Below are positions 51,228 through 55,082 of a stretch of DNA of 64,000 bases, in pieces. Position 1 is the first letter of the stretch, and the number at the start of each line of letters is the position of its first letter. The stretch lies in sequence record NC_054927.1, one strand, 5' to 3'. The notes beneath the pieces were generated by a model. The model ran no database searches and was not told where the DNA came from. It saw only the letters and a program-made list of their open reading frames with translations. This stretch comes from Escherichia phage vB_EcoM_Ozark. The position numbers and the translations under genes are program-made.

Positions 51228-54200
51228 ATGGCTACTTTAAAACAAATACAATTTAAAAGAAGCAAAACCGCAGGTGCACGTCCTGCTGCTTCAGTATTAG
51301 CCGAAGGTGAATTGGCTATAAACTTAAAAGATAGAACAATTTTTACTAAAGATGATTCAGGAAATATCATCGATTTAAGCATTTCTACTGGCGGTAATAT
51401 CAGTGGTAATATCACTCAAACTGGTGATTATACACAGACTGGAAAATTTAATTTAATTGGTCCGCAAATTGTAGCAAGCGGTGGATATATTGAGTTTAAT
51501 TATCGTACTACTGGAAGTGGGGCTTGGTCCGGTCAACATACTGCGAAAGCTCCAATTTTTGTAGATTTAAGCTCAGCTACTTCCACATCTGAATATAATC
51601 CTATAATTAAACAGCGCTTTAAAGATGGAACTTTTTCATTAGGTACTTTAGTTTCTGAAGGTTCGTTGAAGATTCATTATATCAATGAATCTGGCGATTC
51701 GAAATATTGGACGTTTCGACGTGACGGCGGATTTACTGTTGACGGTGGAGGTTTAGCAGTATCAGGAGGTAGTATAACTACATCTGGAAATATTGCAGCT
51801 ATTGGAAATATTACTTCGCCTCAGATTAATACTAAAAATATTATTTTAGATACAAAAGCATTTGGACAATACGATTCGCAATCATTAGTTCAATATGTTT
51901 ATCCTGGAACAGGCGAAGAAAATGGTATAAACTATCTTCGTAAAGTTCGAGCTAAATCAGGCGGTACAATTTATCATGAATTAGCTTCTGCGCAAACCGG
52001 AAAAAGTGATGAACTTTCTTGGTGGACTGGTAATACAGCCGTTAATAAACAAATGGGTCTTCGTAATGATGGGGCTTTAGTATTACGACGCTCACTCGCA
52101 ATTGGTACAATTACAACAGATGAAAACATTAATAACTACGGCTCCGCTGGAGCAATGGGCGAATGTTATATAGTTATCGGTGATGCATCAACAGGCTTAT
52201 CATACAAAAAAACTGGAGTATATGATTTAGTTGCTAGTGGTCTTTCTTTAGCATCTATTACTCCTGATAGTTTCCGTAGTACCCGTAAAGCGATTTTTGG
52301 TCGTTCCGAGGACCAAGGTACAACATGGATTATGCCTGGAACCAACGCCGCGTTTTTATCGGTTCAAACACAAGCTGATGAAAACACTGCTGGAGACGGC
52401 CAGACGCATATTGGCTATAACTCAGGCGGAAAAATGAACCACTATTTCCGTGGTAAAGGCAAAACTAATATTAATACTCAAGAAGGCATGGAAGTTAACC
52501 CGGGTATTTTGAAATTGGTAACTGGCTCTAATAATGTAATGTTTTATGCTGATGGCGGTATTACATCTGTTAAGCAGCTTTCAATATATAATGGCATATA
52601 TTTAGCAGCTAATAATTCTACTGCTGGGCTAACATTCGCTCCAACTACTACAATTGATGGCACTAAGCAAATTTTGTGGGAAGGCGGTACTCGTGCTGGT
52701 CAGAATAAAAGCTATGTAACTGTTAAAGCATGGGGTAATTCATTTAACGCATCTGGCGATCGTAATCGTGAAACGGTTTTTGAAGTAGCTGATGGACAAG
52801 GATATTATTTTTATTCACAGCGTGTGGCTCCAAGTGGCTCTGAAACTACTGGGCCTGTTGTAACCCAGTTCAATGGACAAGTTAATGCTAGAGGAAGTAT
52901 TATTACTGACGGAAGTTTTAAAGTTAATGGATTAAGCACTTTAGTCGGTAATGTTACCATGTCTAATGGTTTGTTTGTCCAAGGTGGTTCTTCTATTACT
53001 GGACAAGTAAAAATTGGTGGAACTGCTGATGCATTAAGAATTTGGAATGCCGAATACGGTGCTATTTTCCGTCGCTCAGAAACAGCATTACATATTATCC
53101 CGACTCCTAAAGATGCCGGTGAAAGTGGTGGAATAAGTAATCTCCGCCCACTTAGTATTAGTCTTAATAATGGTATGGTACAAATGCGCCATTCTGTTAC
53201 GTTAGGCGATGATGGCGCTGGCGGTAATATGATTACTGTGGACAACGATACCAAACTTGTTGTTGTTACTAGTAATAGTCGCATTTCTCCTAATTACCGT
53301 ATGCAGGTAGGACAAGCAGCTTATATTGATGCTGAATGTACTGACACAGTTCGCCCGGCTGGTGCAGGGTCTTTTGCTTCACAAAATAATGAAAACGTTC
53401 GTGCTCCATTCTATATGAATATTAATCGTACAGATACAAGTACTTACGTTCCTATTTTGAAACAACGATATGTCCAAGGAAACAGTTGTTATTCTCCAGG
53501 AACTCTAATTAACGGCGGTAACTTCAGAGTTCATTATCATGAAGGCGGCGATGGCGGTTCGACTGGCGCTATTATAAAGGATTTAGGTTGGGAATTTAAC
53601 AAAAATGGTGATTTTATATCTCCTAAGCGTGTTTCTGCTGGTGGTTCAGTTTATTTAGGTACAGACGGCAATATTACAGGTGGTTCTGGCAATTTTGCTA
53701 ATTTAAACAGTACAATTGAATCACTTAAAACCGATATTGTATCGAGTTACCCAATCGGTGCTCCTATTCCATGGCCAACGGATACTCCTCCTGACGGTTA
53801 CGCTATTATGGAAGGCCAGACTTTTGATAAGTCTGCATACCCAAAATTGGCTATGGCTTACCCATCTGGCGTAATTCCAGATATGCGCGGGCAAACTATT
53901 AAAGGTAAACCAAGTGGTCGAGCTGTATTAAGCGCAGAAGCCGATGGTGTTAAGGCTCATAGCCATAGTGCATCGGCTTCAAGTACTGACTTGGGTACTA
54001 AAACTACGTCGAGTTTTGATTATGGTACTAAGACGACAAGTAGCTTTGACTATGGCACTAAGACTAGCAATACCACAGGTAACCACTCTCATACTGTAAG
54101 CGGTACTACGAGTTCTGCTGGTGCACACCAACATGCGCGCTCAGGTCCTCAGATACAAGCCGGCATACCCAATAACATATTCTATGACGGATATAATAGT

Positions 54201-54503
54201 GTAGGTGCAAACGCCAACGCTAAATTCACTGGAACCGTGAACGGTGCTACTGCAGGGTCGAATATAGCCAAAACTTCTTCAGACGGTGCTCATACTCATA
54301 CTTGGTCTGGTACTACAAGCACTACAGGTAACCATGCTCACACAGTAGGTATTGGTGCTCATACCCATACTGTAGGTATCGGTGCTCATACCCACACGGT
54401 AGCAATTGGCTCGCATGGTCATACTATCACTGTAAATAGTACAGGTAATACAGAAAACACGGTTAAAAACATTGCTTTTAACTATATCGTTCGTTTAGCA
54501 TAA
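51228..54503 (+). CDS. 37: Long tail fibre distal subunit gp37 (receptor-binding tip)
   Basis: 1091 aa; C-terminal cluster of eight HxH motifs and short tandem repeats. Confidence 0.9.
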
Positions 54504-54530
54504 GGAGAGGGGCTTCGGCCCCTTCTAAAT

Positions 54531-55082
54531 ATGAAAATATATCATTATTATTTTGACACTAAAGAATTTTACAAAGAAGAAAATTACAAACCGGTTAAAG
54601 GCCTCGGTCTTCCTGCTCATTCAACAATTAAAAAACCTTTAGAACCTAAAGAAGGATATGCAGTTGTATTTGATGAACGTACTCAGGATTGGATTTATGA
54701 AGAAGACCATCGCGGAAAACGAGCATGGACTTTTAATAAAGAAGAAATTTTTATAAGTGAAATTGGAAGCCCGGTTGGTATAACTTTTGATGAGCCTGGC
54801 GAATTTGATATATGGACTGATGACGGTTGGAAAGAAGACGAAACATATAAGCGAGTTTTAATTCGTAATAGAAAAATTGAAGAATTATATAAAGAGTTCC
54901 AAGTTTTAAATAATATGATTGAAGCTTCTGTCGCCAATAAAAAGGAAAAATTTTATTATAAAAACCTTAAGCGGTTCTTTGCTCTTTTAGAAAAGCATGA
55001 GCATTTAGGTGGTGAATTCCCTTCATGGCCTGAAAAAGAACGGAAACCTTGGTATAAGCGTTTATTCAAGCATTACGTATAA
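54531..55082 (+). CDS. 38: Tail fibre assembly chaperone gp38 (T4 type)
   Basis: 183 aa, same length as T4 gp38; directly follows gene 37. Confidence 0.8.
   Translation: MKIYHYYFDTKEFYKEENYKPVKGLGLPAHSTIKKPLEPKEGYAVVFDERTQDWIYEEDHRGKRAWTFNKEEIFISEIGSPVGITFDEPGEFDIWTDDGWKEDETYKRVLIRNRKIEELYKEFQVLNNMIEASVANKKEKFYYKNLKRFFALLEKHEHLGGEFPSWPEKERKPWYKRLFKHYV

Follow-up and report, generated by a model that had tools for sequence, protein, structure and literature searches.

The gp37 receptor-binding tip of Escherichia phage vB_EcoM_Ozark as a common T4-type needle class, probably with one matched short rung more than T4

The gp37 tip of bacteriophage T4 contains a needle made of six antiparallel beta strands, in which each of three chains runs out and back (PMC9659904), and the HxH motifs of this needle coordinate seven iron atoms (PMC6957217). 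Residues of the T4 head contact OmpC and LPS (PMC5221442, PMC6957217), with OmpC being the primary receptor of the phage (PMC8594841). The Stf protein of phage lambda has been assigned to the same T4/lambda family of receptor-binding proteins (Magaziner and Salmond 2022; PMC9659904). For the phage FelixPlatter (Bas40), the requirement for OmpC was demonstrated by knockout and complementation in the BASEL study (PMC8594841). In addition, duplications of small units in the C-terminal part of T4 gene 37 have been linked to host range (Tetart et al. 1996, J Mol Biol 258:726, as cited in PMC7002106 and PMC5221442), and Tetart et al. 1998, as cited in PMC3157838, proposed recombination in conserved flanks as a mechanism acting here.

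The window analysed here is a stretch of 64,000 nucleotides from Escherichia phage vB_EcoM_Ozark (NC_054927.1). Gene 37, encoding the distal subunit of the long tail fibre with its receptor-binding tip, occupies positions 51228-54503 on the plus strand as an ORF of 1091 aa, identified by its matches to FelixPlatter gp37 and to the T4 structure 2XGF. The lengths given in the original prediction, 1091 aa for Ozark gp37 and 1026 aa for that of T4, were both correct. The gene belongs to a series of long tail fibre ORFs, all on the plus strand, of 1289, 371, 221, 1091, 183 and 218 aa, which corresponds to T4 genes 34, 35, 36, 37, 38 and t when compared with the T4 annotation. The Tequatrovirus gene order 34-35-36-37-38-t, with asiA on the opposite strand, is thus present in Ozark. 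Residues 814-1091 of Ozark gp37 match residues 2-242 of 2xgf_A (phmmer, E = 7.2e-96), and the collar domain is recognized at 53757-53900 on the plus strand (residues 844-891) by Pfam PF07484 (E = 2.3e-11; 43.9 bits, with a cutoff of 24).

Directly downstream of gene 37, gene 38 (54531-55082, plus strand) encodes a tail fibre assembly protein of the chaperone type, not an adhesin of the T2 type, and 181 of its 183 residues are identical to T4 gp38. This 99% identity is maintained despite a head identity of 23.5% and one extra needle rung. gp38 thus does not follow changes in the head or in needle length; the conserved flanks are presumably what it acts on. Between the stop codon of gene 37 and the start of gene 38 there is a tetraloop hairpin, GGGGC-UUCG-GCCCC (54509-54522), with a folding energy of -15.6 kcal/mol and z = -2.8 when folded in a 46-nt context; its T4 counterpart is the same, minus one C. 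It belongs to the C(UUCG)G type, a very stable kind of hairpin first noted in T4 intercistronic regions.

The reading preferred here, with a probability of roughly 0.8, is that the Ozark tip is a T4-type needle and head belonging to a common class, with one matched short rung more than T4 and with OmpC as the receptor. It draws on five observations, namely homology to the T4 tip, the repeat counts, the coupling of those counts across the family, the mosaic borders within the tip and near-identity to a phage whose receptor has been mapped.

All of the segments of the tip are encoded on the plus strand. The first HxH motif, H911-S-H913 (53958-53966), is invariant in a 30-sequence alignment and marks the needle end nearest the collar, on the outgoing strand. 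The same strand then carries two exact copies of a 10-residue unit without histidine, called here the FDY unit (53994-54053), of which T4 has one. A degenerate third unit (54054-54083), equivalent to GTKGTNSTGG in T4, runs into the second HxH. The outgoing 14-residue unit extends from the second to the third HxH (H953/H955 to H967/H969; 54084-54134) and leads to the head, the receptor-binding segment (residues 970-1021; 54135-54290), which is 18 residues longer than the T4 head and 23.5% identical to it. On the way back, the returning 14-residue unit spans the fourth to the fifth HxH (H1022/1024 to H1036/1038; 54291-54341), and three returning 9-residue units (54345-54425), instead of the two found in T4, carry the sixth to the eighth HxH. 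The first two of these units are exact copies of VGIGAHTHT (54345-54398) and the third reads VAIGSHGHT (54399-54425). The conserved C-terminal 25 residues (54426-54500) return to the collar and are 100% identical to those of T4 at both the amino acid and the nucleotide level.

Both arrays were detected by Tandem Repeats Finder, the first as a 30-nt unit present 2.7 times at 53987-54066 (74% matches, score 83) and the second as a 27-nt unit present 2.4 times at 54339-54402 (86% matches, score 100). The original prediction described three copies of each unit; three units are indeed present, but only two are exact and the third has diverged, and the T4 baseline already includes one exact and one diverged copy of each. 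Its count of eight HxH motifs was confirmed for the needle (residues 911-1065), with three motifs on the outgoing strand and five on the returning one. The region that it delimited, 53990-54420, does contain the repeats, but the first HxH (53958) falls just upstream of its start. A ninth motif, H-Y-H (in VHYHE, residues 769-771; 53532-53540), belongs to the shaft and precedes the needle by about 140 residues. This shaft HYH is also found in T4 (VHYHG, residues 742-744), outside the solved 2XGF fragment.

Since G, T, S and H are abundant in the region, its repeats and HxH motifs could in principle be a chance product of low complexity and structurally meaningless, a reading whose probability is negligible. 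When the last 207 residues of gp37, a segment in which all 16 histidines are held in HxH pairs, were shuffled 100,000 times, eight HxH motifs never arose. Moreover, the tip histidines are invariant in the 30-sequence alignment, and homology links the region to a solved structure whose equivalent histidines bind iron, in agreement with the original statement that the His boxes of T4 bind metal along the needle. The shuffles, the invariance of the histidines and the homology to 2XGF together refute the chance reading. The Pfam model Phage_fiber (PF03335), which describes a 14-residue repeat, stayed below its cutoff over residues 948-961 (16.9 versus 20 bits), a marginal shortfall that is little informative; many homologues carry precomputed PF03335 hits.

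Full-length alignment with T4 gp37 shows that the Ozark needle has one FDY unit more and one 9-mer of the VGIGAHTHT type more, with eight HxH motifs against seven. The repeat counts themselves therefore differ between the two phages, rather than being equal with all of the additional length placed elsewhere. However, contrary to what had been suggested, the repeats are not the main source of the additional length, since less than a third of it, 19 residues out of 65, comes from them: 10 correspond to the FDY unit, 9 to the HxH 9-mer, 18 to the head and about 28 to the shaft and the N-terminal part. Likewise, the array can be called expanded relative to T4, but its layout is a common one, shared by 27 of 160 distinct tips and also by lambda Stf. 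Outside the tip, residues ~50-200 of Ozark gp37 (51380-51830) are almost unrelated to T4, with several indels, and there is an 11-residue insertion near residue 652 (~53180-53215). The mosaicism of gene 37 extends well beyond the tip.

The two extra units were placed in a family context by collecting homologous tips from two protein searches, together with named phages, and recording the spacings between successive HxH motifs. These spacings are (32, 14, 37, 14, 9, 9) in T4, (42, 14, 55, 14, 9, 9, 9) in Ozark and (42, 14, 48, 14, 9, 9, 9) in lambda Stf, and the JQD51 tip has the same HxH layout as Ozark. Over 160 distinct complete tips, which are related, so that the coupling rests on a limited number of independent changes (at least five for the 9-mer steps and at least two for the 14-mers), the gap from the first to the second HxH equals 12 plus 10 times the number of returning 9-residue HxH steps in 158 cases (r = 0.9998), and the number of outgoing 14-residue units equals that of returning ones in all 160. 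The other two tips are parsing artefacts that fit the gap rule on inspection. A further 24 sequences were skipped by the parser, as incomplete proteins or through failures of the anchor regular expression; most of those inspected fit, and the skipped examples counted as fitting include P0130 (gap of 62, five 9-residue steps) and P0220 (gap of 73, six steps).

The parsed tips contain 4 to 10 HxH motifs and 1 to 6 of the 9-residue steps, and fall into at least eight layout classes, of which the T4 class comprises 52 of the 160 tips and the Ozark class 27. Four flank haplotypes hold more than one class, and the units are matched every time. Many of the tip-bearing E. coli database proteins (P0035, P0044, P0045, P0063, P0068 and P0072) are deposited under names that do not fit a tail fibre, such as terminase, tape measure protein, ClpP-like protease and fatty acid transporter.

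In the architecture proposed for Ozark, each of the three chains would leave the collar, reach the head and return, giving a six-stranded antiparallel beta needle as in T4, and stacked metal sites would staple the needle, with one HxH per chain contributed at each site. A short rung would be composed of one outgoing 10-residue FDY unit and one returning 9-residue xVxIGxHxH unit, while in the second kind of rung both strands would contribute a 14-residue HxH unit. The simplest reading is that, because the chain runs out and back, an FDY unit needs a returning 9-mer, as the antiparallel register would otherwise be lost. The contacts reported in T4 between G921 and F970 and between G964 and H929 (PMC6957217) would correspond to an antiparallel register of i + j ~1892, placing the FDY unit across from where the 9-mer run begins.

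Eight metal sites are accordingly predicted from the Ozark sequence, against seven in T4, and the tip is plausibly longer than that of T4; judging from beta-strand geometry, the added needle length would be at most ~3 nm. The extra units would act as structural spacers whose register is kept by selection, not as a fast-changing tract, and the choice of receptor would sit in the head. Residues 814-1091 were modelled as a monomer with AlphaFold2 and the 30-sequence alignment, but the pLDDT of 50.5 and pTM of 0.19 make the model unfit for use; its one hint, at low confidence, is a hairpin in which the outgoing 14-mer (945-964) may pair with its returning counterpart (1021-1040).

It can be tentatively proposed, with chances somewhat below even, that needles of the T4/lambda type are built by a strict and apparently unstated rule, in which two kinds of rung are gained or lost only as matched pairs. 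Such a rule would explain why two repeat arrays change in concert over a distance of 100 residues. The coupling was not found stated in the literature searched; it may have been published elsewhere, and the rule may be implicit in the structural literature. As a counterpoint to strict matching, the duplications obtained in T4 in the laboratory (Tetart 1996, as described in citing papers) suggest that unmatched changes can be viable.

The distribution of identity along the tip bears on the origin of the extra rung. At the protein level, Ozark is 92% identical to T4 in the collar, 100% from the first HxH to the first FDY unit and 91% in the 9-mers, the flanks as a whole ranging from 91 to 100%. 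By contrast, identity to T4 falls to 23-69% in the segments of the central cassette, which begins at the extra and third FDY units and ends at the fifth HxH, with 23.5% in the head. The extra units are located exactly at the borders of this divergent cassette, which fits cassette exchange. Most likely, then, the needle-distal and head cassette was exchanged as a whole by recombination in the conserved flanks, a process that would carry the matched units together.

A different origin would be a hypervariable tract, in which slippage or unequal crossing-over often alters the copy number and allows a quick change of host range. The tandem arrangement of the repeats is what such a tract would offer, and laboratory-selected duplications in T4 gene 37 widen the host range to Yersinia (Tetart 1996, as reported in PMC7002106). 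This explanation is nevertheless quite improbable. The two FDY copies encode the same protein sequence but differ at 8 of 30 nucleotides, all of the differences being synonymous and including a TCG/AGT serine switch; similarly, the first and second 9-mer copies differ at 3 of 27 nucleotides, again only synonymously. The copies are thus old, under selection and poor substrates for slippage. The duplications selected in T4 are reportedly bounded by 'His boxes'. Recent slippage as the source of the Ozark repeats was rejected on the synonymous divergence between copies.

Comparison among relatives points in the same direction. A comparison of copy number among related phages had been suggested as a check. 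The tip has matches in 547 phage records, and the 12 of them listed at 80-100% tip identity all cover the same 636 nt. Independent slippage would also not yield the strand-matched copy numbers observed over the 160 tips.

The Ozark allele is not confined to this phage. The whole of gene 37 is 99.9% identical at the nucleotide level to that of FelixPlatter and 99.4-99.8% identical to those of KMB22, FriedrichZschokke, teqhad, AdolfPortmann, R5505 and teqdroes, and at least six other phages on deposit match it at 100% over the DNA of the tip, several of them from the FelixPlatter/teqdroes group. The 27-nt array already carries a repeat_region annotation in the public teqdroes record; teqdroes gp37 has 1085 aa, although its tip is identical to that of Ozark. 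FelixPlatter gp37 differs from the Ozark protein at only two positions, P757L and D941N, the head being identical. D941N is the sole tip difference between them (54048, codon 941) and changes the second FDY unit to FNY. Codon 941 tolerates Asp or Asn, and homologues show FNY and FNH there.

A change in repeat number had been thought capable of shifting receptor usage; no shift was seen in this case, as FelixPlatter, with an identical head, needs OmpC just as T4 does. The extra rung and the larger head therefore leave the primary receptor on K-12 unchanged. By analogy with the literature on FelixPlatter, the Ozark-type tip would bind OmpC through its head.

It has also to be considered whether the extra rung is itself adaptive, a longer needle altering the reach or geometry of the tip, for instance through LPS or O-antigen, and so shifting the host range, with the head deciding the receptor. 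Discrete length classes, from one to six 9-residue steps, do persist in nature, and the transverse docking model of Bartual, as described in PMC5221442, allows both head and needle to touch OmpC. Against this, T4 with seven sites and FelixPlatter with eight both use OmpC on K-12. In addition, one length class is paired with many unrelated heads (head gaps of 33-58), and the same flanks are found with different classes. With class, head and flank mixed in this manner, needle length and specificity are not visibly linked, and an adaptive role for the extra rung is considered unlikely, if less so than slippage.

The preferred reading, a T4-type tip with one additional matched short rung, makes the Ozark feature a length class that is common and has been sequenced before, in a domain that is well studied, and in that sense an ordinary one. 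The Ozark gp37 allele itself is of little import, being found repeatedly in GenBank, with its 27-nt repeat annotated and the receptor of a near-twin mapped. The matched-rung rule is a modest addition and offers a testable design rule for swapping or resizing fibre tips to retarget phages. If it reflects a real structural constraint that has not been described before, it would provide a simple recipe for engineering tip length; a one-sided change in the repeats would then be predicted to misfold, with the Ozark allele as an ordinary example of the rule.

Among the described systems, the T4 gp37 tip (2XGF, with collar, needle, head and seven Fe sites) shares with Ozark the gene position, the collar and the HxH needle, as well as the identical last 25 residues and a gp38 chaperone that is 99% identical. 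It differs in having one FDY unit fewer, one 9-mer fewer and a head that is 18 residues shorter. The T4-type tip is a homotrimer with octahedral iron sites, each formed by three HxH motifs, whereas the counterparts of these sites in Ozark are predicted only. Stf of lambda (Ur-lambda; orf-314) has the HxH layout of Ozark, with conserved flanks, a variable centre and a gene of the gp38/Tfa type downstream, but it differs in shaft, phage type and head, with a tip identity of ~63%.

The T4 mutants of Tetart 1996 resemble Ozark in that small units from the corresponding gp37 region differ in copy number. However, as far as the citing papers describe them, those mutants are single-site and laboratory-selected, whereas the Ozark units are old, strand-matched and fixed in a natural lineage. 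FelixPlatter gp37, with OmpC as its receptor, is unlike Ozark gp37 only at P757L and at D941N, the latter within the second FDY unit.
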